A stretch of DNA of 46,215 bases from Dehalococcoidia bacterium (lineage in GTDB: Bacteria; Chloroflexota; Dehalococcoidia; GIF9; UBA5629). The notes under the pieces were generated by a model. That model saw only the letters and a list, made by a program, of their open reading frames with translations. It was not told the origin of the DNA and did no database searches. The DNA is taken from the NCBI GenBank assembly GCA_050014895.1, contig JBEKCL010000002.1, positions 1 through 46,215 on the forward strand, given 5' to 3'. Below are positions 1 through 27,957 of the stretch, piece after piece. The position numbers and the translations under genes were made by a program. How positions within the stretch are numbered: the first letter of the stretch is position 1; every line of letters begins with the position of its first letter.

Positions 1-1
1 T

Positions 2-712
2 TTCAAACCTGACGTGGCAATTCACATGGCTTGGGAATCTTTACCCGATTATAGTGCCAGGACCAGTATAAGAAATCTTAATTATGGACTGAGCTTGATA
101 ACCATGCTTGCTGAGTCGGGATGCAAGTCAACCATATGCACTGGAAGCTGTTGGGAATATGGGCAACAATCAGGAAAAGTTCATGAAGATACGCCATTAA
201 AACCATTGAACGCTTTTACTGCCGCCAAGAACGCCTTGCACTGGGTGGGCAGGGAAATCGCCAGGGAAAATGGTATGCATTTCATATGGACCCGGCTTTT
301 TTATGTTTATGGCCCCGGACAAAGGGATACCTCTCTCATTCCGTACATAATTAGTTGTCTGCGTAATGGTAAAAAACCAGAGATTAAGATGCCCGGGGCT
401 AGAAATGACTTTGTATATGTAGGCGATGTAGCCCGGGCAATTGCAGCAATCGTCAGGAAGTCGCAAAGAACCGATGTTTACAATATTGGCTCGGGCGGTT
501 CTACAAGCGTGCAGAAGATCATTGAGATTATTTATGACAAGTTTGATCTTCCAGGCAAATATGATAGACTATTAAATCTATCCAATAGTCCGGTTGTTGA
601 TTTTTGGGCAGATATTTCCCGAATTAAAAGTGACATTGGCTGGGAGCCTCAATCAAGCATCTCCGAAGGTATTGCGAAAACAATCAATTTTCATACCGAT
701 GATTGCAAATAA
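2..712 (+). CDS. NAD-dependent epimerase/dehydratase (extended SDR), 3' part; 5' end outside window
   Basis: The frame is open from nt 2 (FKPDVAIHMAW...), so the GTG at 14 in the ORF track is internal. The sequence is the C-terminal substrate-binding half typical of sugar-nucleotide SDRs (YNIGSG, GWEP). Stop TAA at 710-712. Confidence 0.7.
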   Translation, partial: FKPDVAIHMAWESLPDYSARTSIRNLNYGLSLITMLAESGCKSTICTGSCWEYGQQSGKVHEDTPLKPLNAFTAAKNALHWVGREIARENGMHFIWTRLFYVYGPGQRDTSLIPYIISCLRNGKKPEIKMPGARNDFVYVGDVARAIAAIVRKSQRTDVYNIGSGGSTSVQKIIEIIYDKFDLPGKYDRLLNLSNSPVVDFWADISRIKSDIGWEPQSSISEGIAKTINFHTDDCK

Positions 713-1440
713 TGAATAACTACCAAAAATTTCCTTCCCTTCGTAAATATGTTCGTACCAGGACAGATAAGAACAATAGTAAACTTGAGGAAGTGGGGAC
801 GAAGTGGATGAAAGTCCTGACCGATAATCGGCTTAATTATGAAATCGACTGGCTTGGTGTGCCGATAATCCAGACGCCAGAAGACCTGGTACTTATGCAG
901 GAACTGATCTTCAAGGTACAACCTGATTTTATCATCGAGACCGGCATTGCCCATGGCGGCGGCCTCATTTACTACGCTTCTCTAATGGAATTACTGGGCA
1001 AAGGAAAAGTGATAGGCATAGATATTGATATCAGGGAGCATAATAGAAAAGTTATTGAAGCTCATCCGTTAGCTAAAAGAATTGAAATGATTGAAGGCAG
1101 TTCTACATCTGAAGAGATAATCAAGAAAGTCAGATCAAAGATACCGGATAATTCTCAGGTTATCGTTTGTCTTGATTCGGATCACACCAAAGCGCATGTT
1201 TTAAAAGAACTGGAACTGTATAAAACGTTTATTATTCCAGGCGGTTATTTTGTTGTTTTTGACACTGTTATTTCGAAGTTGATCGAACCGGGAAATGCGG
1301 AAGAACATTATACTGATAACAGCCCAAGAGAGGCGGTAGATGAATTTTTAAAAAAGGATAAATGTTTTGAAATTGATAAAAGCTTCAATAAGCTTTTTGT
1401 CTCTTGCAGCCCGGATGGCTATTTAAAAAGAATCAGGTAA
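712..1440 (+). CDS. CmcI / cephalosporin-hydroxylase-family class I methyltransferase (sugar O/C-methyltransferase candidate)
   Basis: WLGVPIIQTPEDL, PDFIIETGIAHGGG (SAM glycine loop) and LDSDHT match my memory of the CmcI family. ATG 712 overlaps the upstream stop (TAATG). The ORF-track start at 703 is a TTG three codons upstream. Confidence 0.75.
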   Translation: MNNYQKFPSLRKYVRTRTDKNNSKLEEVGTKWMKVLTDNRLNYEIDWLGVPIIQTPEDLVLMQELIFKVQPDFIIETGIAHGGGLIYYASLMELLGKGKVIGIDIDIREHNRKVIEAHPLAKRIEMIEGSSTSEEIIKKVRSKIPDNSQVIVCLDSDHTKAHVLKELELYKTFIIPGGYFVVFDTVISKLIEPGNAEEHYTDNSPREAVDEFLKKDKCFEIDKSFNKLFVSCSPDGYLKRIR

Positions 1441-1443
1441 AAA

Positions 1444-2295
1444 ATGAAAGTATTTATTACCGGCGCTAAAGGTTTTATAGGCAGGGAACTGGTCTCGCAA
1501 TGTAAAAAACTGGGGATTGAAGTTCTTGAAGCCGATTTACCGGAAACGGATATATGTTCAAAAGGGATAGTCAAGTTAATCCCGGAAAATATCGATGCTG
1601 TCATTCATCTGGCTGCCCTGTCGAGAGACCCCGATTGTAAGAACAAAGCTTACGAATGTTTCACGCTTAATGTCATGGGGACATTGAATCTAATCGAAGC
1701 TGCCGGGGCAAAGAAAGCGAAGCAGTTTATTTTCGCTTCCAGCGAATGGGTTTATGATAACTGCACTGAAAAAGAGGTCAAGAACGAGGAATCAATCATT
1801 AATATCGCCAACCACAATTCGGAATATGCTTTGTCGAAGCTGGTTTCTGAAGCCAACCTGAGACAAAAATATCAATACGGATTCTGTCCGGTTACCGTCC
1901 TGCGCTTCGGGATAATCTATGGCGCCAGGAAAGAAGGTGGTTCGGCTCTGGAAACTATTTTTCAGAAGGTGAGACAGAATGATGAGATCGAGGTAGGTTG
2001 CCTGCAAACCGGCAGGCATTTCATTCATGTTTCAGACATAACCTCTGGAATTGTGAAGTCGATTGGCCTTCAAAATATTCAAATACTGAACCTGGAAGGG
2101 GATAGGTTAATAACCCTTCAGGATATTATTGAGACCTCCCGGGGAATTTTACATAAGGATATTAGGGTTATCGAGAAAGACCCGACCAGCGCCAGCGTCA
2201 GGCGGATTTCCAACGCAAAGGCAAAGAAACTTCTCAGTTGGGAACCGAAAGTGGATCTGGAGCAAGGGTTGAAGTCCCTGGCGTCAGAGGGATAA
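1444..2295 (+). CDS. NAD-dependent epimerase/dehydratase (SDR)
   Basis: N-terminal Rossmann motif ITGAKGFIGREL and catalytic YALSK (YxxxK). ATG lies 3 nt after the upstream stop. Confidence 0.85.
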   Translation: MKVFITGAKGFIGRELVSQCKKLGIEVLEADLPETDICSKGIVKLIPENIDAVIHLAALSRDPDCKNKAYECFTLNVMGTLNLIEAAGAKKAKQFIFASSEWVYDNCTEKEVKNEESIINIANHNSEYALSKLVSEANLRQKYQYGFCPVTVLRFGIIYGARKEGGSALETIFQKVRQNDEIEVGCLQTGRHFIHVSDITSGIVKSIGLQNIQILNLEGDRLITLQDIIETSRGILHKDIRVIEKDPTSASVRRISNAKAKKLLSWEPKVDLEQGLKSLASEG

Positions 2296-2426
2296 TATTC
2301 AAGAATAGGGAAAATGGAGCTTGAGCTTTGTCGATCAATGGATCATATGGGCCTGGACCTGCATGCTCCTTATTAAAGGGTTAATCCTGCAACTGTTAAC
2401 AGCCTGTACGGGAAACTGAAAAAGCT

Positions 2427-3347
2427 ATGAATTGTGATTTAAAAGTAGCACAAGAGATTTTAAGAGTAAGATTGAGCCAACTGGTTATTAATGAAAAATA
2501 CAAAGGGGGCTCTTTTAAGGTACCAATTCATTTGGCATTGGGACACGAAGCAATTGCGGTGGCTGTAGATTCTATTATGGAAGATGATGACAAGTTGATC
2601 CTCACGCATAGGAATATACACTATAACCTGGCGAGGACAAAACTTTTAAAGCCTGAACTTGACGAATATTTGTTAAAGAAAGAGGGGGTGGCTCAAGGTC
2701 AATTGGGTTCAATGAATTTGGCCAACGAGGATAAAAATATTGTCTACACTTCTAGCATCCTGGGGAACAACCTGGCTGTGGCTGCAGGAGTAGCTTTAGG
2801 GGAAAAAGTAAAGGGTACCAACAGTCTGGTTATAGTCGTCACCGGCGATGGGGCTATGGAAGAAGGCAGTTTTTATGAAAACCTGGTATTTCTTAAAAGC
2901 AATGGATTAAGTTGTTTGGTTTTGGTTGAGAACAATGGCTGGTCGTTGGCAACTACAATTGATGAGCGGCGGTGTAATATTGATATCCGGAAGATCGCCG
3001 AATCCTTATCTATCAGGTACGAAAAATTGGTGGACAACGATACCTATCGATACATTGAAAAGTTAAACGCTTTAAAACAGCATGTTTTGGAGAGTAAAAC
3101 ACCGGCAGTGGTTGAAATTGATCTTACAACATTAGGCGGTTATTACGTTAAGGCAGGAGAAAATACAAAGCCTAGATTTATCAATTATCATGCTGGGCCT
3201 GCCCCCGAAGTAAGCTTGAAGGAATTGCCCCTGATAGAAGAATCCAACAGCGACCCTGTCTTTGTCTTGCTGAAATATTTTGAGCAGAGTGTTCTTGAGA
3301 AAACCTCATCGGAAATTCTACGAAAGATCGAACATGAAATACATTGA
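2427..3347 (+). CDS. Thiamine-diphosphate-dependent E1 alpha-subunit-like protein (dehydrogenase E1 / transketolase N-terminal type)
   Basis: Intact ThDP-binding motif GDGAMEEGSFYENLVFLKSNGLSCLVLVENN (GDG-X26-NN). Length and order are typical of E1 alpha. Preceded by the only sizeable intergenic gap (131 nt) in this gene string. Confidence 0.8.
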   Translation: MNCDLKVAQEILRVRLSQLVINEKYKGGSFKVPIHLALGHEAIAVAVDSIMEDDDKLILTHRNIHYNLARTKLLKPELDEYLLKKEGVAQGQLGSMNLANEDKNIVYTSSILGNNLAVAAGVALGEKVKGTNSLVIVVTGDGAMEEGSFYENLVFLKSNGLSCLVLVENNGWSLATTIDERRCNIDIRKIAESLSIRYEKLVDNDTYRYIEKLNALKQHVLESKTPAVVEIDLTTLGGYYVKAGENTKPRFINYHAGPAPEVSLKELPLIEESNSDPVFVLLKYFEQSVLEKTSSEILRKIEHEIH

Positions 3348-4263
3348 ATTTATAAACGAATTAATAAGAAAAAAAGTATTGGAAACTGAAAATATCGTAC
3401 TTTTCGGGCAAAATATCTCAGCTGGCTCCTGCATTTCCGGTTTTACTAAAAATCTTAAAGTCCAGAAGGGACTTATTATTAATACTACCAATGCCGAAAA
3501 TACATTATGCGGCGTCGGGTTTGGCCTGATGTTAAGCAACGTGCCGTCAGTTTTCTTTATGAAACAGCTGGATTTTCTTTTGCTGGGGATTGACCACCTG
3601 GCAAATACTTATAATTTCATCAGGAGAAAACAGCCGACATCATCATTCACGATAATGCCGGTTATCGTCGATCAGGGTTACCAGGGTTTGCAGTCAAGCC
3701 TGAATAATTTAGGAGATTTTTGTTCTATAGCCAGGGTGCCGGGATTTGCGATAACTAACAAGGTAGATGCTGAAGAAATAATTAATACGCAGATGGTTTC
3801 CCCAGGATTCAGGATAATTGGAATCAGTCAGAGGTTGTATAAAGAAGAACTATTAGATATTGAAAAAATTTATTCGAACAAAGAGTGTTCGGTTTTCCAG
3901 TATAGTCAAGGGAAGGCCGCAACAATTGTTTGTTTTAATTTTTCCTTCTCTTACGGTTGGGAATTATCCGAGAGAGCAAAGGGAAACGGAGTTGATACCT
4001 CACTTTTTACAGTAAATTCTTATACTCCAGCTAAATGGGAGAGAATTATTGAAAATGTCAGAGAGACCCATAACCTGGTCATCATTGACGACAGTAAAAG
4101 CGAGAATCTTTCTTGTTATTCATTGATCAATGACATTCTTAATGAGTGTTCCTTGAAGAATAAAATTGTTGTTAAAAGAGATATGTCAGGGGATTGGCTT
4201 AGCCCAAGCCTTGAGCTGTTAGATATTGATTACCAGGGGATTTTGGAGAGAATTAGCCGGTGA
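3334..4263 (+). CDS. E1 beta-subunit-like / transketolase pyrimidine-binding-domain protein, partner of the preceding gene
   Basis: Divergent but recognisable E1 beta layout (MKYIEFINELI..., ...NAENTLCGVGFGL...DFLLLGIDHLAN). ATG 3334 gives a natural N-terminus and overlaps the E1 alpha stop by 14 nt. The ORF-track start at 3280 is probably too far upstream. Confidence 0.65.
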   Translation: MKYIEFINELIRKKVLETENIVLFGQNISAGSCISGFTKNLKVQKGLIINTTNAENTLCGVGFGLMLSNVPSVFFMKQLDFLLLGIDHLANTYNFIRRKQPTSSFTIMPVIVDQGYQGLQSSLNNLGDFCSIARVPGFAITNKVDAEEIINTQMVSPGFRIIGISQRLYKEELLDIEKIYSNKECSVFQYSQGKAATIVCFNFSFSYGWELSERAKGNGVDTSLFTVNSYTPAKWERIIENVRETHNLVIIDDSKSENLSCYSLINDILNECSLKNKIVVKRDMSGDWLSPSLELLDIDYQGILERISR

Positions 4264-5252
4264 TTATTAGCAGGACACCTTTACGAGTCAGTTTTGCCGG
4301 GGGTGGCTCAGATCTCAAGGCTTATTACCAGTACGGCTACGGCTCGGTGGTAAGTACGGCCATTGATAAATACATGTACGTAATGATTAACCGGACGTTC
4401 GACCATCACATACGCGTCATATACTCCAAGATCGAATACGTGGAAAAGGCCGAGGACATTGAACATAACCTGGCAAGGGTTGCGCTCGATTTAGTCGGAA
4501 TCAAAGGGAATGCAATGGACATTGCCTATATGGGGGACGTACTGCCGGCTCAATACGGCTCGGGGCTTGGGGCTTCAAGTAGCCTCACCGTTGGCATCCT
4601 TAATGCCCTCCACGCCTATAAAGGTGAACGTGTATCGGCCAACACTCTGGCAGAAGAGGCTTGCCGGATTGAAATAGAAATCCTGGGACGGCCTATTGGT
4701 AAACAGGACCAGTACCCGGCCGCCTATGGCGGCCTTAATTATATCCGTTTCAACCGGGATGAAAGTGTGTCCGTGGAGCCGATTGTTTGCAGACAGGCAA
4801 CAATGGAGGCGGTGGCTAAAAACATGCTGCTATTCTATACCGGACTGAAAAATACTCAGGCTGATAATATTTTGAGTGAACAGATGGGCAGGGCACTTGA
4901 TAACCGGCCAATCCTGGATAAGATGGTTGCCTTATCGGATGATCTTAGAACGGCGTTAAACGGCAATGATTTGACCAGGTTTGGCAATATTCTCCACGAG
5001 GGTTGGCTTTTAAAACAGAAGCTGGCTAATAACATTACCAATCCCACGATAGACGACTATTACGCCAAGGCTAGAAAGGCCGGGGCTGTCGGTGGCAAAA
5101 TTCTCGGCTCCGGCGGTGGTGGATTCTTGCTCTTGTACTGTGCTTCGGAGAAGCAAAATCAGGTCCGTGAAGCGATGTCTGAGCTCAGGGAAGTTGCTTT
5201 CAAATTTGAGCCGGAAGGTAGTAAAATTGTCTACATGAGTGATCTCCGGTGA
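4260..5252 (+). CDS. hddA: D-glycero-alpha-D-manno-heptose-7-phosphate kinase (GHMP kinase)
   Basis: N-terminus MIISRTPLRVSFAGGGSD and GHMP motif GSGLGASSS. GTG start overlaps the upstream stop (GTGA). Sits next to gmhA, gmhB and hddC. Confidence 0.8.
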   Translation: MIISRTPLRVSFAGGGSDLKAYYQYGYGSVVSTAIDKYMYVMINRTFDHHIRVIYSKIEYVEKAEDIEHNLARVALDLVGIKGNAMDIAYMGDVLPAQYGSGLGASSSLTVGILNALHAYKGERVSANTLAEEACRIEIEILGRPIGKQDQYPAAYGGLNYIRFNRDESVSVEPIVCRQATMEAVAKNMLLFYTGLKNTQADNILSEQMGRALDNRPILDKMVALSDDLRTALNGNDLTRFGNILHEGWLLKQKLANNITNPTIDDYYAKARKAGAVGGKILGSGGGGFLLLYCASEKQNQVREAMSELREVAFKFEPEGSKIVYMSDLR

Positions 5253-5869
5253 TTCATGTGAAGAAACTGAGCAAGAAGTTTGTTAAAGAGTACCTGGAAG
5301 AGATAAGGAAGCTCCTTGATTTAATCGAGGCAGACTTGACCGGTCAAATCGGCAAGCTGGCCATCATACTGGCGGAAGCCAGACAGGCCCGCAAGACAAT
5401 TTTCATTGTCGGAAACGGCGGCAGCGCGGCCACGGCCTCTCACTTTGCCGGCGATTTATCCAAGCTGACTATCGCAGAGGGATTTACCCGATTTAAAGCA
5501 ATTGCCCTGACCGATAATACGCCGAGCCTGCTGGCCTGGGCTAACGACGTTAACTATGAAGAGATTTTCGTTGGCCAGTTGAGGAACTTGCTGGAACCCG
5601 GCGATATTGTTATAGGGATAAGTGCAAGCGGCAATTCAATGAATGTAATCAAGGCCATTGAGTATGCCAACAAGAATGGCGCATTCACGATCGGCTTTTG
5701 TGGATATGATGGCGGCAAGCTGCTCAAATGCGCCCGGGAGAGCATCCTGGTACCCTGCACTCACATGCCAAGGGTGGAGGATATCCACATGCTAATGTGC
5801 CATCTCCTGGCATCACTGCTCCTGGAAGCAACAAAAGTAAAGGGTACGTCTTTAAAGAAGGGAAAATAG
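5249..5869 (+). CDS. gmhA: Phosphoheptose (sedoheptulose-7-P) isomerase, SIS domain
   Basis: SIS motif FIVGNGGSAATASHFAGDL and GISASGNS. GTG start overlaps the hddA stop (GTGA). Confidence 0.8.
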   Translation: MIHVKKLSKKFVKEYLEEIRKLLDLIEADLTGQIGKLAIILAEARQARKTIFIVGNGGSAATASHFAGDLSKLTIAEGFTRFKAIALTDNTPSLLAWANDVNYEEIFVGQLRNLLEPGDIVIGISASGNSMNVIKAIEYANKNGAFTIGFCGYDGGKLLKCARESILVPCTHMPRVEDIHMLMCHLLASLLLEATKVKGTSLKKGK

Positions 5870-5870
5870 T

Positions 5871-6899
5871 ATGAACGTTTTGCTTACTGGCAATAATGGC
5901 TATATTGGCTCGATGCTGACCAGCCTGCTCATTAAGAAGGGTCACAATGTTACAGGCCTGGATACAAACTATTATCATGGCTGCGAATTCGATCAATTCA
6001 GCTACCCGAAGTTAAAGCAGATAAAGAAGGACATCAGGGACGTGTCCAGGCAGGATTTGAAAAATATCGACGCCATTATTCACCTGGCTGCCCTTTCCAA
6101 CGACCCGCTTGGTCAGCTTGATGCCAATTTGACTTATGATATAAATTGCCAGGCTACAGTGAAGCTGGCTACGCTGGCTAAACAAGCAGGTATAAGAAAG
6201 TTTATCTATGCCTCCTCCTGCAGCCTGTATGGAATAGCCGGCGAAGAGGCGGTGACCGAGGACTCTCCGATGGCCCCGGTCACCGCTTATGCCATCTCGA
6301 AGGTGAGGTCCGAAGAATCCCTCTCCAAGATGGCCGACAATAATTTCTCCCCGGTGTTTTTGCGGGCCAGTACCGTTTACGGTATTGCCCCCATGCTTCG
6401 TTGCGACCTGGTAGTAAACAACCTGACTGGCTGGGCCTATACCACGGGAAAAATACGGATTATGAGCGATGGCACCCCGTGGCGTCCCACAATTCATGTC
6501 GAGGACCTGAGTCAGGCATATATTGCTTGCATGGAGGCCCCCACAGAGATTACACATAATCAAGCGTTTAATGTCGGCCAGAACAAGGAAAATTACCAGA
6601 TAAAGGATTTAGCCAGCGCAGTGAAAAAGGTTGTTCCGGGTTGTGAAGTTGAGTATACGTACGAACATGGTAGCGACTCGCGGACCTATAAGGTCAGCTT
6701 CGATAAGATATCGTCCAAGCTGAAGGGTTTTTCTCCCAAATGGGATGTTAATAAGGGAGTGCAGCAACTTTACGCGGCCTTTAAGGCTCATGGCCTGACG
6801 CATGAGGAATTCATAGGGAACAAGTATGTGAGATTGAACCATATTCAAGAGCTGATGCAGCAAAAAGCCATTGATGAAAAGCTTTTCTGGAGAAGTTAA
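5871..6899 (+). CDS. NAD-dependent epimerase/dehydratase (SDR) embedded in the heptose operon
   Basis: LLTGNNGYIGSML Rossmann motif, ASSCSLYG and YAISK catalytic residues. Confidence 0.85.
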   Translation: MNVLLTGNNGYIGSMLTSLLIKKGHNVTGLDTNYYHGCEFDQFSYPKLKQIKKDIRDVSRQDLKNIDAIIHLAALSNDPLGQLDANLTYDINCQATVKLATLAKQAGIRKFIYASSCSLYGIAGEEAVTEDSPMAPVTAYAISKVRSEESLSKMADNNFSPVFLRASTVYGIAPMLRCDLVVNNLTGWAYTTGKIRIMSDGTPWRPTIHVEDLSQAYIACMEAPTEITHNQAFNVGQNKENYQIKDLASAVKKVVPGCEVEYTYEHGSDSRTYKVSFDKISSKLKGFSPKWDVNKGVQQLYAAFKAHGLTHEEFIGNKYVRLNHIQELMQQKAIDEKLFWRS

Positions 6900-6902
6900 G
6901 GG

Positions 6903-7724
6903 TTGGGTATCAGACAAGCGGTTATCATGGCGGGCGGCGAGGGCATCCGTTTAAGGCCGCTGACACGCGATGTTCCGAAACCAATGGTTTTGGTAAATAA
7001 TCGCCCTTTTCTTGAGTATCTCATAGAAATGCTTAGGCTGAACGGGGTAAATGAAGTTGTTCTCCTGGTCGGCTATCTGCACGAGAAAATAACACAGCAT
7101 TTTGGGAATGGTTCAGGTTTTGGTCTTAGCCTGAAATATTCTGTCGGCAAGGTGAGTGATAAGACTGGCACCCGGATCAGAAATGCCGGCCCGCTTCTTG
7201 ATGATACCTTCCTCCTGATGTATGGTGACAACTATTGGCCGCTTGACCTGGAAGCTCTCCTTGAGGCCTATACCATGCATAAGACACTGGCCTCGACGAC
7301 GGTATATGCCAACAAAGATGGCAAGGGCGAATATGGCGCCGAAAACAACATATGTGTAGACAATAATGGCTACGTGCTGAAATATGATAAGAGTCGAAAA
7401 GACAAAGACCTTAACGGTGTTGATATAGGTTTTTTTATCGTGGGTAAAAAGGTCCTGGAATTAATGCCGGATCACAATTTTTCCTTTGAGGAAGAAATCT
7501 TACCGGTGCTGGTTGCTCAGCGTCAGCTTTCAGCTTATCAAACTGAGCACAGGTATTACTATATCAGCACTGTTGAGAATCTGAAAGCGGCCGAAAAATT
7601 CCTGCAGTCGAAAGAAGCAGTCGGCATCAATACTCTGCGTGGGTTTAAGCCTGAAGTGCTTGCTTCAGAAGATAACCTGAAGGGGCCGAATCATCTGAGC
7701 GGTAAAGGGGAGCGCCGGCCGTGA
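6903..7724 (+). CDS. hddC: Sugar-1-phosphate nucleotidyltransferase, probable D-glycero-alpha-D-manno-heptose-1-P guanylyltransferase
   Basis: Signature AVIMAGGEGIRLRPLT (GGxGxRLxPLT). This motif needs a start upstream of the first ATG, so the TTG at 6903 is the likely initiator. About 45 aa of C-terminal extension relative to typical family members. Confidence 0.7.
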   Translation: MGIRQAVIMAGGEGIRLRPLTRDVPKPMVLVNNRPFLEYLIEMLRLNGVNEVVLLVGYLHEKITQHFGNGSGFGLSLKYSVGKVSDKTGTRIRNAGPLLDDTFLLMYGDNYWPLDLEALLEAYTMHKTLASTTVYANKDGKGEYGAENNICVDNNGYVLKYDKSRKDKDLNGVDIGFFIVGKKVLELMPDHNFSFEEEILPVLVAQRQLSAYQTEHRYYYISTVENLKAAEKFLQSKEAVGINTLRGFKPEVLASEDNLKGPNHLSGKGERRP

Positions 7725-7737
7725 TGGGGAGCCTTCT

Positions 7738-8274
7738 TTGGCAGCGATGAAGCCTAACAAGGCCGTGTTTATTGACAGGGACGACACTATCTCCCCCGAC
7801 GTTCATTACTGCAGCCGGCCGGAGGATTTCGAACTATTTCCTGATGTGCCTGATGCAATACGCCAGTTAAATGCGTGCGGGTTTAAGGTGGTAGTCATTA
7901 CCAACCAATCAGGAATAGGGCGAGGTTACTTCACTGAAGAGACACTGGCCAAAATACATGACAAAATGCATTTGGAACTCGAAAAGCATGGTGCTCATCT
8001 CGATGCCGTCTATTATTGCCCGCACCATCCTGATGAGAACTGTGATTGCCGTAAGCCAAAGCCGGCCTTGCTGCTGAAGGCTGCAGAAGATCTCAAAATT
8101 GATGTTGCAAAATCATATATGGTTGGTGATAGTACAATGGATGTTGAGCTTGCCAGGACAGTAGGGTGTAAGGCTGCAGTCGTAACAGGGCAACGCAGCG
8201 TATCGAATGCGGATTTTATAGCAGCGACGTTTGCTGACGCCGTCAAATGGATACAGGAACAAGAAAACCTGTAG
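7738..8274 (+). CDS. gmhB: D,D-heptose 1,7-bisphosphate phosphatase (HAD superfamily)
   Basis: HAD motif I FIDRDDT, zinc-loop YYCPHHPDENCDCRKPKP, and GDS..D motif. Start is either TTG 7738 (GGGGAG 6 nt upstream) or ATG 7747. Confidence 0.85.
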   Translation: MAAMKPNKAVFIDRDDTISPDVHYCSRPEDFELFPDVPDAIRQLNACGFKVVVITNQSGIGRGYFTEETLAKIHDKMHLELEKHGAHLDAVYYCPHHPDENCDCRKPKPALLLKAAEDLKIDVAKSYMVGDSTMDVELARTVGCKAAVVTGQRSVSNADFIAATFADAVKWIQEQENL

Positions 8275-8290: not shown

Positions 8291-9541
8291 ATGAAAGATA
8301 TAAAATTTTCTGTGATTATTCCGACCAGGGAGCGGGTGGATACGCTTGTTCATGCTCTAGCCACATGCACAACACAGGACTATGATAACCTGGACATAGT
8401 CGTAAGCGACAACTTTAGCCAGGATAACACGCGGGAAGTGGTCTCTTCATTTTCTGATCCTAGAATTAAATATCTTAATACGGGAAAGCGCATAAGCATG
8501 TCGCATAACTGGGAGTTTGCGCTTAATCATATTACTGAGGGTTGGGTGACATTTTTAGGTGATGATGATGGTCTTTTACCTGGTGCAATTAACGCAGTTG
8601 CTGATGTGGTTGAAAAAACTGGTTGTCAGGCAGTTGTATCAAGACAGTGTGGATATTGGTGGCCGGAAAGTGCCCGGCAGGACACCGATTGGTTCAGGGT
8701 AGCTGCCAATTGCCTGATTGTTCCCCTGGGTAAGGGTTTTCAATTAAGAAATGGTCGCGACTGGTTGCGCAAAGTGATGCGTCAGGATGCGGAACATATT
8801 GATTTACCGTGGTTGTATACGGGTGGATTTGCTGATATCCGTGCTGTTAACCGGGCACGGGGACCAACCGGGGAATTTTTCCTGTCCATGATTCCGGACC
8901 TGTATTCATCAATTGCTTTGGCCTCGGTGGTGGATACTTATGTGATACTGAAGGAACCTGTAGCGGTGTGTGGTGTGTCATCTCATAGTGCGGGCAACGC
9001 TTGGATCAGCGTTAAAAAAAGTGATCGCAAGCAGGCGGAAGTATTTTTTTCTGAGAATAATATTCCGTTTCATAGCATGCTAGCCGGCGGTGAGGTCCTT
9101 AAGTCGGTGCAAATAGCCGTTTATGAAAGCTACTTGCAAACGGCCCATTTGCACCACAATTTCTTGAAAATAAAGCTGGAGGACCAGCTGGCATTGATAT
9201 TGGCCGGTACCCCGAAGCAGGACTATTCTGAAATCAGTAAATATTGTTACGGCGTTGCCCAAAGCAATGGTGTAGACAGAAACATTCTTGACCGGAAAAC
9301 TAGCAGCGAAAGAAAACGGCTATTTCTAAGGCGATTGAATCAAACACTTGGAGTCGTATTTGGACAACTTAATTTGTCCGATGATAAGCGGGTCATAATC
9401 AGAGATGCGAGAGAGTTCGGTGCCACAAACATATATGGAGCTACTTTACTGGCCAAGGCGGTTTACCTGCTGGAGACCCGGTACACGAATCTGCCGCTGG
9501 ATTTACTTACGAGTTTAATTAAGGCCGGCTTTAAAAGGTAA
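8291..9541 (+). CDS. Family 2 glycosyltransferase with long C-terminal extension
   Basis: FSVIIPTRERVDTL...DIVVSDNFSQDNT and a DDD motif (GDDDG). The C-terminal roughly 200 aa have no features I recognise. Confidence 0.8.
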   Translation: MKDIKFSVIIPTRERVDTLVHALATCTTQDYDNLDIVVSDNFSQDNTREVVSSFSDPRIKYLNTGKRISMSHNWEFALNHITEGWVTFLGDDDGLLPGAINAVADVVEKTGCQAVVSRQCGYWWPESARQDTDWFRVAANCLIVPLGKGFQLRNGRDWLRKVMRQDAEHIDLPWLYTGGFADIRAVNRARGPTGEFFLSMIPDLYSSIALASVVDTYVILKEPVAVCGVSSHSAGNAWISVKKSDRKQAEVFFSENNIPFHSMLAGGEVLKSVQIAVYESYLQTAHLHHNFLKIKLEDQLALILAGTPKQDYSEISKYCYGVAQSNGVDRNILDRKTSSERKRLFLRRLNQTLGVVFGQLNLSDDKRVIIRDAREFGATNIYGATLLAKAVYLLETRYTNLPLDLLTSLIKAGFKR

Positions 9542-9552
9542 CGACCGTCCTA

Positions 9553-11025
9553 TTATGGCTGGTTTTTCTTCCTGCCGAATATCTCTGTCAACTGCAGGAT
9601 GAATGACAGATCGGTCTTGTCAAAGGTTCGCAGCAGGATAGTTAGCCCGAAATAAACCAGGGCGGATACTGCCACAACCAGGATAAGATTAAGGCTGCTG
9701 ACAGCAATGGTTACTGCTGCCATCCCCAGCCCGGCCGCCGCGACGCGTACTATTGTCACTATGTCTCTGGCTGTTCCAATCGTATCGGGTGATCTGGATA
9801 TGAAAATAAGCTGCATAGTGAGCAATGCCAGGTCTGCGGCCACTCGTGCGGCGCTGGCTCCAACGTAGCTGAACATGGGAATGAGGATCACGTTTAAAGC
9901 CAGGTTAAACACGGTTATAGCAAGGTACATTTTGGTCAGGGCGTTTTGCCGGTTAGTGGCATAGAGGTATGAATTGAGCGCGAAAGTTGTGAAATTTAGG
10001 GGAGTTGACCAGATGAGTATTTGCAAGGATATGACGGTCGGCGAATACGCCGGGCCGAAAATTACGTTGATGATCCGGTCGGCTAACAGGGTTACTCCTA
10101 TTGATATGGGGAGCCCCACAATAAACAGGTATTTAATCGATCTCTCAGCTGATAATCGAAGGGCGCTATCAGCGACCCTGTAGGACCGGGACATAATAGG
10201 GTACAGGGCGCTGGTCAGTGCGAGCGGGATGAATATGAGCAACTGCGGTAATCTTGAAGCTGCGCTGTACCAGCCAACCACGGCATCCCCTTGCACGATT
10301 TTGAGCAGGACCCAATCACCCCAACTGTAGACGCTGGCGAATACCACAATAAATGCAAAAGGGAGCACTCTTAAAATAATTCTCTTCCAAAAAGCCGGGT
10401 CAAACTCGAGCATCCGTGCGTTTTTATTGGGCACATGGAATTTAACACGAAGTATTATCAGGTTATATATGAGTACACTAATAGCGGCTATGGCGTAGAC
10501 TGCTGCAAGGACAACGATGCTCTGCCGCAGGTTGACCGCCACCACAACCCCAATGAATATTATAGCGGAGTTTAATACCTGGCCGATGCCCATGTATATC
10601 ATCTTTTCATGGCCCTGGTAGATCCCATAGTACAGGGGAACGAACATGTTGAAGATGACAGCCAGTCCCAACAGGTAGAGTACCCACACGGTATCAGCTG
10701 AATACCCCGACATCCCTGCGACCGTGGCTATAATCCCGATAACAACCACGGAAATTAATATTTTCATCAGAGAAATGTTGGCCAGGTATTTGGCTGTGGC
10801 TCCCTTGTCGCGTGCTACTTCCAGTGTTACAAGGGTCTGAAGGCCGAGGTCGCCGATGGCGTTGATGATGCTCGTGAAAGCTATGGCGAAAGATAAAATG
10901 CCGAATTCAGCAGGACCGAGATACCGTGCCGAGTACATCATGTACAAGAAGGCCAGCAGATAGCCGATGCACTGGGCGACTAGAAGGACGATGCTGTTTT
11001 GGGCAATTTTCAGAATTGTACTCAA
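9553..11025 (-). CDS. MOP-superfamily polysaccharide flippase (Wzx-like)
   Basis: 490 aa, about 12-14 hydrophobic segments, with an N-terminus typical of polysaccharide biosynthesis / Wzx proteins. Confidence 0.75.
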   Translation of the reverse strand: MSTILKIAQNSIVLLVAQCIGYLLAFLYMMYSARYLGPAEFGILSFAIAFTSIINAIGDLGLQTLVTLEVARDKGATAKYLANISLMKILISVVVIGIIATVAGMSGYSADTVWVLYLLGLAVIFNMFVPLYYGIYQGHEKMIYMGIGQVLNSAIIFIGVVVAVNLRQSIVVLAAVYAIAAISVLIYNLIILRVKFHVPNKNARMLEFDPAFWKRIILRVLPFAFIVVFASVYSWGDWVLLKIVQGDAVVGWYSAASRLPQLLIFIPLALTSALYPIMSRSYRVADSALRLSAERSIKYLFIVGLPISIGVTLLADRIINVIFGPAYSPTVISLQILIWSTPLNFTTFALNSYLYATNRQNALTKMYLAITVFNLALNVILIPMFSYVGASAARVAADLALLTMQLIFISRSPDTIGTARDIVTIVRVAAAGLGMAAVTIAVSSLNLILVVAVSALVYFGLTILLRTFDKTDLSFILQLTEIFGRKKNQP

Positions 11026-11171
11026 TAGATAATACCTTGTGGACTTCCAGATGCGTGCTTATACATCTTCGCTGCACACTTTAATATAGATCATCCCAGG
11101 ATAACCTTGCCGTTTAATTCTATCATTGAGCAAGTCATGTCCGCTATGCCGTTAATGCGGCAGCGGCGGAT

Positions 11172-12005
11172 ATGTTCTCTTTTATGAGAGGCAGCGAGTG
11201 TGCCTCAGGCCTTTTTAGATATGCTATAATTTCCCAAATCGATCCGGATATGATCATGAATAACTCTAAAAAATGGATATGGACACAGACTAATAGGTTC
11301 CGCTATCAACTGGATTCTCTTTACTATTATTCGCGTATAATGCGGATTCTTGAAGATGAGATCTTCATCGTTAAAGCTATTACAAACCGGCATGGTATTG
11401 CCGTTGATATTGGGGCCAATTTTGGAATCTGGTCTTATCATTTATCGAAGTTATTCGTTCACGTGGAGTCGTTTGAGCCCATATGTGAATGTTGTGATGT
11501 TATACGAAGTACCCACCGTAAGAATATCAGCGTGCATAATGAGGCCCTGTCCTCTGCTGCAGGCAATATGGAACTACGCATCCCGGTCGAAAAGGGCCGG
11601 CTGCTATTGCAGTCTGCAAAACTGGGTGAATTGGACGGGCAATTCAAAAGCGAAATTGTCCCGGTAAGAAAATTGGATGACTATGAGTTTGCAAATGTGA
11701 GGTTCATGAAAATTGATGTGGAAGGGCATGAGATTGAGGTATTAAGAGGAGCAGAAAAGACTATTATCAACGAAAAACCCGTAATGATAATTGAGATCGA
11801 GCAAAGGCACCTTGATTTTCCTATGAACAATGTATTCGATTTACTAAAATCTTACGGATATAACGCATTTTTTCTCAGCGGCAGAAAGTTGCGCCCCTAT
11901 GCTGATTTTTCCTATGAGTTGGACCAACTGCCGTTCTTAAATAATCTGTCATCTGTTTTATACGTACATAATTTCATATTTATACCGGAGAAGAAGAGAT
12001 ATTGA
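11172..12005 (+). CDS. FkbM-family methyltransferase
   Basis: VDIGANFG SAM loop and the family hallmark KIDVEGHEIEVLRGA. The true start may be an internal ATG (11250 or 11256). Confidence 0.75.
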   Translation: MFSFMRGSECASGLFRYAIISQIDPDMIMNNSKKWIWTQTNRFRYQLDSLYYYSRIMRILEDEIFIVKAITNRHGIAVDIGANFGIWSYHLSKLFVHVESFEPICECCDVIRSTHRKNISVHNEALSSAAGNMELRIPVEKGRLLLQSAKLGELDGQFKSEIVPVRKLDDYEFANVRFMKIDVEGHEIEVLRGAEKTIINEKPVMIIEIEQRHLDFPMNNVFDLLKSYGYNAFFLSGRKLRPYADFSYELDQLPFLNNLSSVLYVHNFIFIPEKKRY

Positions 12006-13162
12006 GCGGAATTCAAATTGCGGTTAATGCAACAGTGGCTAATGAGCGTGAAAAAACCGGCATTGCTACGTATGCGCTCAACTTATTAAACTCACTGCAA
12101 ACACTGGATGGTTTGAACCGCTATACTGTCTTTATGTTGCGCAGCCAGGACAATAGCCTGGTCACGAGCGACAGATTCAAAATCAAGCCACTGCCTCGGT
12201 TACTTCAATCCCTTCCGCTGGTATATGAGTGGTTGCTATGGTACACCTGGTATTACACCGGTTATAGCTGTCAACTTGGAACAATGAAACCTGATGTCAT
12301 TTTGTCTCTAGACTTTGATATTCCGTTATATAAAAAGTGCCCGTCAGTATGTATAATCTATGATCTGACTCCGCTCCTGTTCGGGGATATGTTCCCACGG
12401 CATTTCCGTATAAGGTACAAATGGCAGACAAAGCACGCTGTAGGAAATGCGCGCAAAATCATCACGATTTCGGAGGACGCCAAGAAAGATGTCATCACAT
12501 ATTTTGGAGTGGACTCCGAGAAAGTAGTCGTAGCTTATCCTGGTTTCGATAGCCGGTTATTCAAACCTGAAACCGACAAACAGAAGATAGATCAGTTGAG
12601 AGCCAAGTACAAGCTGGGGAATCCGTATATATTGTTTATGGGTATCCTCCATGCAAAGAAGAATATTTTGCGGATAATAGAGGCCTTCGAGTCTTTGAAG
12701 ACGGAATTTGGGATAAAACACAAGCTTGTCATAGCAGGAAAAAGGGCCTGGCAGGATGAAATTATATTTGACAGGATACAGTCTTCTCCTTTCAGATCTG
12801 AAATTGTATTTGCAGGATATATTACCGATGAGGAAGCCCCGATATTGATGAACGGAGCCGACGTGTTTGTTTTTCCTTCGTTGCATGAAGGGTTTGGCAT
12901 ACCTCCTCTGGAAGCGATGGCTTGTGGGACGCCGGTTATTACTTCCAACACGTCTTCTTTGCCTGAAGTTACAGGAGATGCAGCGCTGCTGGTTAATCCT
13001 TATGATGCACATGAAATGGCATCTGCCTTGTACAGGGTAATCTCAGAACCCGGGCTTCGCGAGACAATGATCGAGAAGGGACTGGAAAGAGTTCGTCTAT
13101 TCTCATGGCAGAGAACAGCGCGTTCGGTATTGACCGTTTTAGAGCAAGCTGCTCAAGGATGA
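12002..13162 (+). CDS. GT4 (GT-B) glycosyltransferase
   Basis: C-terminal [21 protein letters not shown] motif. TTG start overlaps the upstream stop (TTGA). Confidence 0.85.
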
Positions 13163-13806
13163 TTTGGATGGCAAGTAATCATGAGGTAGTGACTGGCTGG
13201 AATGAGATCTGGAGCAGGTACAGGGCACCAAATTTCCTGGGCCGCCGGTTACATGCAGAACGAATAAAGACTTTGAGAAAAATACTGAGCTCACTTGGAT
13301 TGCCGCTCGGCGCGCCAATAGTGGACATTGGGTGTGGTAGTGGGTCAACTTTGAGCATATTCAGGAGTCTCGGTTATATCAGTTCTATTGGGGTGGATGG
13401 AGCTGAAAAAGGCCTTGCAGCGGGACAGAAACTTTATGGTTATGCCAGAGACAAAGACATTTTTCTGGCCGATGCCCGAAATACTCCATTTGGTGACAAA
13501 TCGTTCGACCTTGTTTTTTCGCAGGGCCTGCTGGAGCATTATGAACAGAAGTCGGAGGCTTTGCAGATTGTTAAAGAGCTTTGCCGCCTATCGAAGAAAT
13601 ATGTGTTGCTGCTTCAGCCGGATCAGTCCTCATTATTCGGTCTGGCCAAACGGATTTATGAGAGGTCAGGCCGCAGTTCATGGGAGATAGAATACAGATA
13701 TTTAAAAAAGGACTATATCGGACTTTTCGATAATTCCAGCTTCGCTTTGCTTGATACCGGAAGTTCAAATTTCCGGGAAGAGATGTGGCTATTATTTGGT
13801 CGGTAG
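13159..13806 (+). CDS. Class I SAM-dependent methyltransferase
   Basis: VDIGCGSGS motif I. ATG 13159 overlaps the GT4 stop (ATGA). The ORF-track start at 13105 would overlap the GT4 gene by 58 nt. Confidence 0.75.
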   Translation: MIWMASNHEVVTGWNEIWSRYRAPNFLGRRLHAERIKTLRKILSSLGLPLGAPIVDIGCGSGSTLSIFRSLGYISSIGVDGAEKGLAAGQKLYGYARDKDIFLADARNTPFGDKSFDLVFSQGLLEHYEQKSEALQIVKELCRLSKKYVLLLQPDQSSLFGLAKRIYERSGRSSWEIEYRYLKKDYIGLFDNSSFALLDTGSSNFREEMWLLFGR

Positions 13807-13834
13807 AGCGGCATCTGGCGGTACTGTATAAAAC

Positions 13835-16102
13835 CTAAGGGTCAGCTTCCAATATCTGGGTTGCGCCGTTATCGTATATCCGTTCTTTCCAGGGATTATT
13901 GCCATCTCCATTTACAAATCCGGAAAGATCGATATGGGAACGAAGGCCGGGATACCCCAGTGTGAAAGTAAGCTCATTGTGAGATATGTTCCAGGCTGTC
14001 AGGAATATCAGGTCGCCGCTATCCGGTTTGGCAGTGGGCGTAAGTGAGAGGATACCGCCAGGAAACTCGTTTTGCATCAGTATTTTCCACGTGTGGGTGT
14101 CGGAATACACAAAAGATGCGTCCGTGGTGCTGGATGTAAGCCAGCGTGCTGCATAGTCGTCCTGCGTGGAAAAATTGCCCATTAGATCGAGCCGGTGGCT
14201 GCTTAACGCAATCGAGAAAGGGGCCTCGATCCTTACCGTGTCCTTCATTCCCGTAACCTCGTAAAGGATCCCGGATGTGATTATGAAATACGGGACCATA
14301 ACTGCAACCGTGATAATTTTCAGGTATGAGGGACTTTCCTTTAATGCAGCATCCGGGCGCTTTCTGATTTTGTGCCAAGCATATTTAATTAACTGGAGCA
14401 CCGTCTCTCCGCCGATAATGAAGAATGGCGCCAGCGTGATCAACAGCACATGGTACCATCTTGTAGTATTGAAAGCGTAGGCAAAATTGGGTAGTTTTAT
14501 GCATGCTGCCAGCATTGCCACGCTGAGCACGCTCACGGCAATATACTCTATGCGGAATTTGAGGCCTTTTGGCATCAGCAGAAGTCGCAGGAGGCCCGCG
14601 ATAATGAACAGTTGGGTTATGTATTGCATAACCCGGAATGCCTGTCCCTGCCAGGAGACCTTGAAGAAGTCTACGCCGAGCGCAGCCTGAACGAGAAGGT
14701 CCTGTGCGGCGGCAGCCGAGGCAAGAATGGATTCTGATTGCGAGTTCCATAGCGAGCTTAGCATGGCTAGGTTGGCTCCCTGAGCTATCAATAGGTACCA
14801 TGCCAACCCCATGATACAGAACGTGATGACAGGTATGATCAGTAGCATCATCGGCAGCGTGCCTGCTCCGGGTTGTCTGTATTCCTTCGGCAGACCGCCG
14901 GACCACGATGTGATCCATGACCAGATTCTGATGAAGAAACCGCTCTTCAACAACAATAAAGTGGGCACCAGCAAGGCAACATATATAAGTGTGATAAAGC
15001 TCAGGGAGTAGTGGGAGACTATGATTGACAGTGCAAATAGCACCATCATCAGCACTCTGGGCAGTCTGCCGACTCTCCGGTCCACTATTAGAAGAATGAA
15101 AAGAGAGAAAAACAGCTCGGCTATCTGCTGGCGGCAGAGGCTTATCATTTCCAGCGAAAATGTAGGCACTGCCATGAAAAAGAAGACTGCCAGGAATGCC
15201 GAAAGCGCCCCAATCTGGATGCGCATGAATCTGAACATTATCAGGGGGAGAAATGAAAACAGGATGGGATACACGGCTTTAAAAACCCAAATTCCGTCTA
15301 TACCCATCATGAAAGAATAGGTAGGGGCAAGCATGACGATGCTGAGGCACGAATTAACAGGGTTGTCGACCGTGTAATTCCATATTCCAGCTGTAACTGT
15401 GTCCCCGAAGTAATGATATTCCGTGTAAATATCGCTTCCGATCAGGTACGGTGACATCAATGACGTCTGGTAAAGTAAGCAAAGACTTATGACGAATAGC
15501 GCAAGAGGATAGATTCCCCGGGTAATGAATTTCTTGAAGGCAGCCAGGGAAATAATCAGTGCAATTAAAAGAAGGCTGATAATCAGGGCTGCATTATTGC
15601 CGGTGACGTCGCTTATCTTAACCCCTGTTATCATGACGAGCAGTACTGCAAGCAGGAACAGAACAGAATTAATGCTGGTCGAAGGCCAGCGCAGCTGTTT
15701 GTCGGAGCTGTTTCGATAATTCCTGTCTCTGGCCCAAGCCGCCGTCATAAGCAGGGCAATCTCAATGACCAGCGCCGAGAGGATGGGAAATTGTGAAATT
15801 GGGTTTGCTACATTAAAGAGCGGAAGCAGAAAATTGATAATCGCGCCGGAGAACATGACCAGCGTCACGCTTAATCCAACGGAATAGGCCACGCTCTCAG
15901 TCGTATTTATTTCATGGACCATGAGGATACGAAGCAGGAGTATACCTGGTATAAAGGTCAAGAAGATAAAGCCAACTACCTGGCGCAAGATCGGTATATC
16001 CAGCCCTGCCGCAGCTGTAATTGTCAACAGTACCTGGATAAGGACCAATCCTCCGCACAGGAGAAGGCAATCCTTTATTTTCCAGTCATTGGGCCATCGC
16101 AT
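13835..16102 (-). CDS. Large polytopic membrane protein with about 170-aa C-terminal soluble domain; DUF2206-like, candidate glycan polymerase / GT-C-type transferase
   Basis: 755 aa with at least 12 hydrophobic spans. The segment GSDIYTEYHYF...NSCLSIVMLAP...VFKAVYPILFSFLPL...CRQQIAELFF...VSHYSLS resembles my memory of DUF2206. ATG overlaps the upstream GT4 stop (TAATG). Confidence 0.55.
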   Translation of the reverse strand: MRWPNDWKIKDCLLLCGGLVLIQVLLTITAAAGLDIPILRQVVGFIFLTFIPGILLLRILMVHEINTTESVAYSVGLSVTLVMFSGAIINFLLPLFNVANPISQFPILSALVIEIALLMTAAWARDRNYRNSSDKQLRWPSTSINSVLFLLAVLLVMITGVKISDVTGNNAALIISLLLIALIISLAAFKKFITRGIYPLALFVISLCLLYQTSLMSPYLIGSDIYTEYHYFGDTVTAGIWNYTVDNPVNSCLSIVMLAPTYSFMMGIDGIWVFKAVYPILFSFLPLIMFRFMRIQIGALSAFLAVFFFMAVPTFSLEMISLCRQQIAELFFSLFILLIVDRRVGRLPRVLMMVLFALSIIVSHYSLSFITLIYVALLVPTLLLLKSGFFIRIWSWITSWSGGLPKEYRQPGAGTLPMMLLIIPVITFCIMGLAWYLLIAQGANLAMLSSLWNSQSESILASAAAAQDLLVQAALGVDFFKVSWQGQAFRVMQYITQLFIIAGLLRLLLMPKGLKFRIEYIAVSVLSVAMLAACIKLPNFAYAFNTTRWYHVLLITLAPFFIIGGETVLQLIKYAWHKIRKRPDAALKESPSYLKIITVAVMVPYFIITSGILYEVTGMKDTVRIEAPFSIALSSHRLDLMGNFSTQDDYAARWLTSSTTDASFVYSDTHTWKILMQNEFPGGILSLTPTAKPDSGDLIFLTAWNISHNELTFTLGYPGLRSHIDLSGFVNGDGNNPWKERIYDNGATQILEADP

Positions 16103-17187: not shown

Positions 17188-17191
17188 AGTC

Positions 17192-17929: not shown

Positions 17930-17990
17930 CCTGGAATCTCCTTGGACAAATAACTAACAACATTGTTCCATCAAAGACCAAAGCCCATCA

Positions 17991-21069: not shown

Positions 21070-21238
21070 AGTAGATAAAAGATTATACGGAAACAAAATA
21101 CAAGTCAATTGTTAATAATAAGATTAGGAACGATTATGATAATTGTGAAACGGGTAAAAACAATGTATTACTTTGATCCTGCAATACTGTGTAATAGATA
21201 GATACGTGAAAGTAAATAATATTAGTGGCCGATAACGC

Positions 21239-25986: not shown

Positions 25987-26032
25987 AGATCTCCTTCAAG
26001 TAGTAGTATCATCAATCGATTATTATGATTTC

Positions 26033-27920: not shown

Positions 27921-27957
27921 TCCTCATTCTCCTGTTATCTCGATCGGATTCGGTTCA

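Follow-up and report, generated by a model that had tools for sequence, protein, structure and literature searches.

An E1-like gene pair beside heptose-activation genes in a Dehalococcoidia bacterium: a candidate thiamine-dependent enzyme for branching a nucleotide-activated heptose

What does a pair of genes resembling the alpha and beta subunits of a 2-oxoacid dehydrogenase E1 do among genes that activate heptose? The question is raised by contig JBEKCL010000002.1 of a Dehalococcoidia bacterium (assembly GCA_050014895.1), whose entire 46,215 bases are the window analysed here. The pair stands within a block of ten open reading frames (ORFs) on the forward strand at the start of the contig. 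We propose that these E1-like proteins, which carry the motifs of thiamine diphosphate (ThDP) enzymes, move a pyruvate-derived two-carbon unit onto a nucleoside diphosphate (NDP)-4-keto-heptose. Judging from sequence and from analogy with antibiotic sugars, we give this a probability of a little under one half. The product of the cassette is likely to be a heavily modified, so far undescribed nucleotide-activated heptose for surface polysaccharide. The ten genes, including three extended short-chain dehydrogenase/reductases (SDRs) and an S-adenosylmethionine (SAM) methyltransferase, are as follows.

2-712 (+): SDR_A, C-terminal ~235 residues of an extended SDR (ORF 14-712; Pfam Epimerase, E = 6e-28)
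703-1440 (+): CmcI/rhamnosyl-O-methyltransferase-family SAM methyltransferase (PF04989, E = 7e-75)
1444-2295 (+): SDR283, a 283-residue extended SDR, Rmd-like, constant upstream partner of the E1 pair
2427-3347 (+): E1 alpha-like ThDP-binding (PP-domain) subunit, 306 residues (PF00676 E1_dh, E = 2.7e-24, 86 bits)
3334-4263 (+): E1 beta-like subunit (Pyr domain and C-terminal domain), 309 residues, ATG at 3334; divergent, compact family
4260-5252 (+): GHMP sugar kinase, HddA-like (D-glycero-D-manno-heptose-7-phosphate 1-kinase); Pfam GHMP N and C domains
5249-5869 (+): SIS-domain isomerase, GmhA-like (sedoheptulose-7-phosphate isomerase; SIS_2, E = 9e-21)
5871-6899 (+): SDR342, a 342-residue extended SDR within the heptose genes; best PDB matches 6vo6/6vo8
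6903-7724 (+): sugar-1-phosphate nucleotidyltransferase, HddC-like (PF00483, E = 5e-19)
7738-8274 (+): HAD-IIIA phosphatase, GmhB (heptose-1,7-bisphosphate 7-phosphatase), with DRDDT and a CxHx..CxC zinc loop

An earlier reading made from the letters and translated frames alone (hereafter the sequence-only reading) had described these ten frames and their overlaps. Everything it quoted is present in the translations: the overlap of 14 nucleotides between alpha and beta and of 4 between beta and kinase, and the motifs GSGLGASSS, GNGGSAATASH, GGEGIRLRPLT, DRDDT, CPHHPDENCDCRKP and GDG-X26-NN. Kinase and isomerase genes overlap by a further 4 nucleotides. Pfam and NCBIfam profile scans of the ten products agree with the domain assignments of that reading.

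Family, fold and active site of the E1-like pair

The alpha subunit is recognisably E1-like and distant from the enzymes of dehydrogenase complexes. It scores 125 bits against the NCBIfam equivalog for pyruvate dehydrogenase (PDH) E1 alpha, whose cut-off is 394, and matches human E1p alpha in the PDB with E = 1.9e-21. The beta subunit is more divergent: it has no Pfam match and reaches 35 bits (9e-9) against the NCBIfam PDH E1 beta model, for a cut-off of 321. A profile of the beta family matches the Thermus E1b beta chain (1um9_B) with E = 3.6e-12 over residues 1-262. The AlphaFold (AF2) model of the protein (pLDDT, the predicted local confidence, 84; pTM, the predicted template-modelling score, 0.88) retrieves in Foldseek the E1 beta chains of PDH and of branched-chain 2-oxoacid dehydrogenase (BCKDH) at TM 0.70-0.78 and 14-17% identity, followed by split transketolase and DXS. 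The predicted structure confirms an E1 beta fold for the 3334-4263 product.

The family has kept the features of a ThDP enzyme. G140-D141-G142, N169-N170, H35, R62 and H255 of alpha are invariant among 33 aligned members. E55 of beta is likewise invariant in its family and aligns with the Glu that activates ThDP in E1 beta, part of the DTPxSE motif (DTPLSE/DTPLAE). The intact GDG-X26-NN motif reported by the sequence-only reading therefore extends to the family, and the alignment of catalytic residues finds no ThDP feature missing. An exhaustive HMMER search for relatives of beta among 1.84 billion cluster representatives returned only 322 at E <= 1e-3 and 94 at 1e-30. With so few members, the beta family forms a compact clade and stays separate from canonical E1 beta, whose family is very large; by these sequence comparisons the pair is a distinct clade. 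A plasmid collection contained no member of the alpha or beta family, only canonical E1 at less than 30% identity (25-29% to the alpha and 18-23% to the beta subunit of the pair).

The region of beta that corresponds to the HSQS loop reads GYQGLQSSLNN in this family, and the whole segment has no His. The title of PDB entries 1ols/1olx names a role of the HSQS-loop His in reductive acylation, the step directed at lipoyl-E2. In human BCKDH the reductive-acylation pair is His291-alpha and His146-beta'; the beta His is the one absent here. The partner genes are absent too. A tblastn search with AceF and Lpd of E. coli covered the window together with 89 related loci and their +/-10 kb (1.48 Mb altogether). 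It found no E2 or E3 homologue, its sole match being the biotin carboxyl carrier protein (BCCP) of the window. Pfam scans of the window and of the relatives' contexts likewise contain no E2 or E3. The only lipoyl/biotinyl-type domain of the window is that BCCP (32407-32943), which belongs to an acyl-CoA carboxylase cluster. By comparison, a genuine bkd cluster of Listeria is arranged lpd-E1a-E1b-E2. Lacking both the partner genes and the beta His, and scoring below the equivalog cut-offs, the pair is placed by sequence outside the E1 families of dehydrogenase complexes. The sequence-only reading had noted that the window lacks E2 and E3, on which both searches agree, and had thought membership in a 2-oxoacid dehydrogenase complex unlikely; the 89 loci without E2/E3 and the His-less beta loop bear this out.

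A conserved and probably mobile cassette

A survey with one genome per species identified the alpha homologue in at least 268 species-level genomes, and we counted its neighbours within +/-10 kb in the 80 best of the 268 loci. The bacteria among these 80 are Chloroflexota, Saccharibacteria, Parcubacteria, Planctomycetota, Omnitrophota, Nitrospirota, Acidobacteriota, Desulfobacterota and many Alphaproteobacteria, including the cultured Magnetospirillum sp. SS-4 and Jiella sp. LLJ827, as well as one Prochlorococcus single cell; archaea (Nitrosopumilales, Nitrosotalea, Methanosarcinales) are also among the 80. Nearly all homologues at 57-80% identity are metagenomic. In relatives such as a Chloroflexi metagenome-assembled genome (MAG) and Ryanbacteria, the neighbourhood consists of a GHMP kinase, an SIS isomerase, a ~340-residue SDR and an NTP_transferase-HAD fusion, together with a Methyltransf_13/14 (TylC3-type) C-methyltransferase, RmlC-like cupins, a ~300-residue SDR, a CmcI-type methyltransferase and a 283-residue SDR, then E1 alpha and E1 beta. 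The counts are:

E1 beta: 74/80 loci
SDR283: 64-73/80 loci
GHMP kinase: 57-58/80 loci
RmlC-like: 55/80 loci
NTP_transferase: 53/80 loci
C-methyltransferase: 52/80 loci
CmcI: 49-50/80 loci
SDR342 (as best match): 45/80 loci
SIS: 25-27/80 loci

The order SDR283(-RmlC-like)-E1a-E1b is found in 53 of the 72 evaluable loci, where alpha and beta mostly overlap by 4 nucleotides. The association of an E1 pair with heptose-activation genes, which the sequence-only reading had drawn from a single contig, thus recurs across many phyla.

The cassette is widespread and probably mobile by lateral transfer. Archaeal MAGs (Nitrosopumilales, Nitrosotalea, Methanosarcinales and an unclassified archaeon) carry it, as does the genome of a single Prochlorococcus cell (L017, L023, L029, L032 and L088), which implies transfer between domains; the alpha subunits of these loci are 41-60% identical to that of the window. 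Alpha identities of 50-69% between Chloroflexota, the candidate phyla radiation (CPR), Planctomycetota and archaea also point to lateral spread. Within the window, the modification module (2-4263) has a GC content of 38-45%, with 37.7% in E1 beta, against 47-50% in the heptose genes and 50.5% in the remaining contig. The step falls exactly at the overlap of beta and kinase, which suggests that the heptose genes are the resident part and that the modification module came in upstream of them by lateral transfer.

Four enzyme types for the activation of heptose lie together at 4260-8274, and a route from sedoheptulose-7-phosphate to NDP-heptose is predicted to be encoded. The kinase matches HddA best among NCBIfam models (137 bits, below the cut-off of 600), and its best solved relatives all act on heptose (kinases 3k85, 4usk/4usm and 4n3o; E = 1e-39 to 1e-28). 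The isomerase has TIGR00441 (gmhA) as its best or near-best model, at 116 bits for a cut-off of 209. GmhB is the sole one of the four to pass its cut-off (188.5 bits against NF006506, cut-off 178). The nucleotidyltransferase scores below the cut-off both as a mannose-1-phosphate guanylyltransferase (108 bits) and as HddC (95 bits, cut-off 300), and its top PDB match is a UTP-glucose-1-phosphate uridylyltransferase, with HddC (5xhw) third, a ranking that is not diagnostic for GDP. Of the complete GDP-heptose set claimed by the sequence-only reading, the four enzyme types therefore stand and the nucleotide is left as probably GDP.

Nucleotidyltransferase and HAD phosphatase form a single fusion protein in 41 of 59 relatives, whereas in the window they are separate genes in different frames. 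A frameshift in a fused gene was considered and rejected: the window nucleotidyltransferase is 71% identical to the N-terminal part of the fusion protein of the closest relative (locus L001), and the window HAD is 36% identical to its HAD domain. This drop at the junction indicates that the HAD gene is another one, and not the fused domain split off by a simple frameshift. The best matches of the window HAD are stand-alone HADs of the Nitrosopumilales and Nitrosotalea loci (44-45%). The nucleotidyltransferase ORF ends in a tail of ~35 residues without homology.

Three of the cassette products match the Epimerase/GDP_Man_Dehyd models of Pfam, as expected from the three SDRs of the sequence-only reading, the first of them being only a fragment. 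SDR342 matches 6vo6/6vo8, deposited as 'putative sugar-nucleotide epimerase/dehydratase', over residues 2-306 (E = 7.4e-36). Its motifs ASSCSLYG and YAISK supply the SDR Ser, Tyr and Lys. The Asp/Glu of 4,6-dehydratases is missing, on which ground we rejected that activity. We regard SDR342 as a putative NDP-heptose C4-dehydrogenase or epimerase that would make a 4-keto intermediate; this gives the SDR-made keto intermediate of the sequence-only reading a plausible source. SDR283 finds its best PDB match in a GDP-6-deoxy-D-mannose reductase (6x3b, the GDP-4-keto-6-deoxy-mannose reductase Rmd; E = 4e-17). Its motifs ASSEWVY and EYALSK are conserved in ~60 of 62 orthologues, and it is a putative ketoreductase, less likely a dehydratase. 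SDR_A is cut off by the contig end, with a frame still open at base 2, and lacks ~65 N-terminal residues, relatives having ~300 residues (the full-length orthologue in L001 is at 6967-7869). In nearly all of the listed orthologue motifs (33 aligned) Phe takes the place of the catalytic Tyr (FxxxK for YxxxK), and GSCWEYG is conserved. SDR_A may be a redox-inactive epimerase or another non-canonical SDR. The CmcI-type gene probably starts at the ATG at 712; its product scores 86 bits against the NCBIfam rhamnosyl O-methyltransferase model (cut-off 400) and matches CmcI itself (PDB 2bm8) with E = 7e-6.

The window most probably holds an incomplete cassette, because in L001 a C-methyltransferase and an RmlC-like gene lie directly upstream of the SDR_A orthologue and neither a TylC3-type C-methyltransferase nor an RmlC-like gene is found elsewhere in the window. 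Both would lie beyond the contig end. A second RmlC-like position is the gap of 131 nucleotides between SDR283 and E1 alpha (2296-2426), which is occupied by an RmlC-like cupin in 20 relatives and by a 153-residue hypothetical protein in L001. An RmlC-like gene was either lost from this gap or never there.

Two of the relatives, a Victivallis MAG and an unclassified bacterium (loci L045, at 1125-6054 and 15711-16727, and L063, at 6836-8245), have the trio SDR283-E1a-E1b with no heptose-activation genes nearby. Beside their trios lie a family 2 glycosyltransferase (GT2) gene and several genes for radical SAM proteins, of the B12-binding and the SPASM type. The trio looks like a portable module that also serves other glycan contexts.

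The cassette is followed in the window by further glycan genes, identified by Pfam scans:

8291-23017: glycan-assembly genes, namely GT2, Wzx-type flippase, FkbM and class-I methyltransferases, three family 4 glycosyltransferases (GT4), DUF2206 membrane protein, GMD-like SDR and GlmS

Presumably this cluster is where the modified heptose is used. In the middle of this cluster, a polytopic DUF2206 membrane protein of 755 residues (13835-16102, -) could be a polymerase or a glycan-transferring enzyme. A 416-residue SDR of the GDP_Man_Dehyd family (17991-19241, -), the fourth nucleotide-sugar SDR and one that the sequence-only reading leaves unmentioned, is matched by its model in two separate stretches, which suggests an insertion. 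The Atu/Liu-like operon at 24949-36103 (-) is unrelated to the cassette; it encodes a carboxyltransferase, biotin carboxylase, BCCP, enoyl-CoA hydratase, AtuA, acyl-CoA ligase, acyl-CoA dehydrogenase, a TetR regulator and an NMO-family oxidoreductase. The window also carries queA and the genes for formate-tetrahydrofolate ligase and FolD. Two ORFs, 38462-39070 (-, 202 residues) and 41055-42455 (+, 466 residues), have no Pfam match, and Rfam and tRNA scans of the window were empty.

The proposed reaction and its alternatives

We suggest the following sequence of events. SDR342 would oxidise C4 of the activated heptose to give NDP-4-keto-heptose. The E1 alpha/beta heterotetramer, working without E2/E3 as a ThDP-dependent carboligase, would decarboxylate pyruvate (or another 2-oxoacid) to the ThDP enamine, which would add to the sugar ketone and leave a heptose with a C-acetyl or C-(1-hydroxyethyl) branch, nine carbons in all. 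SDR283 might then reduce a remaining carbonyl and the CmcI-type enzyme methylate the sugar. Stereochemistry could be adjusted by the Tyr-less SDR_A and the RmlC-like epimerase of the relatives, and a C-methyl group added by the TylC3-type C-methyltransferase. RmlC-like cupins and extended SDRs act on NDP-4-keto sugars, and the pair is placed at the nucleotide-sugar level because these are its neighbours.

Several points weigh against this proposal. The role given to SDR342 presupposes that its nearest solved relatives, entries 6vo6/6vo8, are Cj1427, a GDP-heptose C4-dehydrogenase, which their deposited name does not say. The invariant H255 of alpha may match the second reductive-acylation His, in which case the loss of lipoyl-directed residues would be only partial; the alignment is weak there, and a second alignment stops short of it. 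The loci L045 and L063 imply that the acceptor need not be heptose everywhere. The literature searched describes no thiamine-dependent or C-branched heptose and no ThDP enzyme tied to a heptose pathway. The precedent invoked by the sequence-only reading, AviB1/AviB2 of avilamycin biosynthesis, is real and is joined by Pau11/Pau12 (Plm8/Plm9) of paulomycin; both rest on genetics only (PMC4753412, PMC4802897). Common functional descent with these pairs is not established, because they are called highly similar to PDH E1 and the beta subunit of the window escapes Pfam.

Two alternatives seem to us improbable to about the same degree. In one, the pair comes into play ahead of nucleotide activation and resembles transketolase or DXS in its task, making a ketose phosphate (sedoheptulose-7-phosphate or octulose-8-phosphate) for the SIS, GHMP, HAD and nucleotidyltransferase enzymes, in parallel with the transaldolase LmbR of the lincomycin GDP-octose route. 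The same logic of isomerase, kinase, phosphatase and nucleotidyltransferase is used for the lincomycin octose, according to PMC6819324 (citing Sasaki 2012 and Lin 2014). The alpha subunit has secondary matches to DXS and transketolase models, the beta model also fits the folds of split transketolase and DXS, and in the window the beta gene overlaps that of the kinase by 4 nucleotides. Across the survey, however, the pair is tied to SDR283 (64-73 of 80 loci) and the RmlC-like cupin, enzymes of NDP-keto sugars, and not to SIS (25-27 of 80). Moreover, a pyruvate donor would give a 1-deoxyketose that an aldose-ketose isomerase of the SIS type presumably could not use, and the nearest solved relatives of the kinase are heptose kinases.

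In the second alternative the pair works on its own, as a decarboxylase of 2-oxoacids or as a C-C cleaving enzyme of the acetoin type, which would supply an aldehyde or acyl group for a non-carbohydrate substituent, or trim a sugar-derived keto acid, without branching the ring. E1 chemistry does start with decarboxylation, some sources name members of the family acetoin:DCPIP (2,6-dichlorophenolindophenol) oxidoreductase subunits, and several methyltransferases and reductases of the cassette have no assigned substrates. E2-independent ThDP decarboxylases also occur in glycan clusters, e.g., phosphonopyruvate decarboxylase. Yet no partner genes for a substituent (phosphoenolpyruvate [PEP] mutase, aminotransferase, acyltransferase) are conserved beside the pair, whose conserved neighbours are all nucleotide-sugar enzymes. 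A phosphonopyruvate or sulfopyruvate decarboxylase was itself rejected as a candidate: alpha is of the E1_dh type and not of the POX-type TPP_enzyme_N/C, and there is no PEP mutase.

Least probable is that the pair is the true E1 component of some 2-oxoacid or acetoin dehydrogenase complex, placed incidentally among glycan genes and with E2/E3 encoded elsewhere: alpha does belong to Pfam E1_dh, the best solved relatives are PDH and BCKDH E1 and the DNA upstream of SDR_A is out of view, but the glycan context is conserved in 80 species-level loci of many phyla, no E2/E3 occurs in 1.48 Mb of related loci, scores are far below the equivalog cut-offs with 18-29% identity to canonical E1, the His loop of beta is replaced, and the arrangement expected of such an enzyme is that of the Listeria bkd cluster. 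The remaining probability belongs to explanations outside those listed here.

A two-carbon unit's transfer to NDP-4-keto-heptose is thus the reading we prefer. We hold somewhat more tentatively its wider form, in which a new E2-independent clade of E1-like carboligases, with C- and O-methyltransferases, builds an undescribed C-branched C9-C10 sugar that is a common surface component in hundreds of mostly uncultivated lineages (CPR, Chloroflexota, Acidobacteriota, Planctomycetota, Thaumarchaeota and a Prochlorococcus cell). If true, C-C branching of the E1 type, so far inferred from knock-outs in a few antibiotic pathways, would be widespread in prokaryotic surface glycans, and heptose would be a further scaffold for it, beside hexoses and pentoses. 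Soluble two-subunit enzymes from many phyla would allow a first in vitro demonstration of E1-type branching, and the pair would serve as a genetic marker for an undescribed sugar in organisms whose envelopes are almost unstudied. The question is directly testable because the cassette occurs in the cultured Magnetospirillum and Jiella strains.

Relation to known systems

The E1 alpha2beta2 enzymes of pyruvate, branched-chain 2-oxoacid and acetoin dehydrogenases share with the window pair the fold, the split into subunits, GDG-X26-NN and the ThDP-activating Glu of beta. The pair differs from them in its shorter alpha (306 residues), its 18-29% identity, the lost His loop of beta, the absence of E2/E3 and the glycan context.

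The chemistry we propose is that of YerE, from the biosynthesis of yersiniose A, which two papers are cited for as the only biochemically characterised enzyme that adds a pyruvate-derived two-carbon branch to an NDP-4-keto sugar (PMC4753412, PMC10338323). YerE is unrelated to the pair: it is a single-chain ThDP flavoenzyme of the acetolactate-synthase type, from the POX/AHAS superfamily, with flavin adenine dinucleotide (FAD), and acts on a CDP-3,6-dideoxyhexose.

In the capsular pathway of Campylobacter jejuni, GDP-heptose is made by Cj1423-1425 and GmhB, and then modified by the C4-dehydrogenase Cj1427, the C3/C5-epimerase Cj1430, the C4-reductase Cj1428 and an O-methyltransferase (PMC10680097). 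Cj1427 makes GDP-4-keto-heptose with a tightly bound NADH that is recycled by alpha-ketoglutarate in a ping-pong mechanism (PMC10680097). This pathway and the cassette have in common the isomerase, GHMP kinase, phosphatase and nucleotidyltransferase that activate D-glycero-D-manno-heptose, the RmlC-like epimerases (here in the relatives), SDR reductases, a methyltransferase and an SDR closest to 6vo6/6vo8. Neither a ThDP enzyme nor a TylC3-type C-methyltransferase is part of the C. jejuni system, and its products are unbranched heptose stereoisomers or deoxyheptoses, whereas the window adds the E1 pair, SDR283, the Tyr-less SDR and the CmcI-type methyltransferase.

The closest systems for the pair itself are AviB1/AviB2 and Pau11/Pau12 (Plm8/Plm9), E1-like pairs from deoxysugar pathways of actinomycetes that are proposed to put a pyruvate-derived two-carbon branch on NDP-4-keto sugars, at the C4 ketone (PMC4753412, PMC4802897, PMC10338323). 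Among the names given to members of the family studied here, none is of the AviB or Pau type. Compared by description only, the AviB and Pau proteins are called highly similar to PDH E1 in the literature, whereas the beta subunit of the window escapes Pfam and belongs to a small family of its own. With them and the related kosinostatin system the cassette shares a two-gene E1 alpha/beta-like pair without E2/E3 in a cluster for nucleotide-sugar modification, and also neighbouring enzymes that make 4-keto sugars, methyltransferases and ketoreductases. Those systems act on dTDP/NDP 2,6-dideoxy- or pentose-derived antibiotic sugars in Streptomyces and Micromonospora; the pair described here is instead tied to genes for heptose activation and surface polysaccharide in uncultivated bacteria and archaea.

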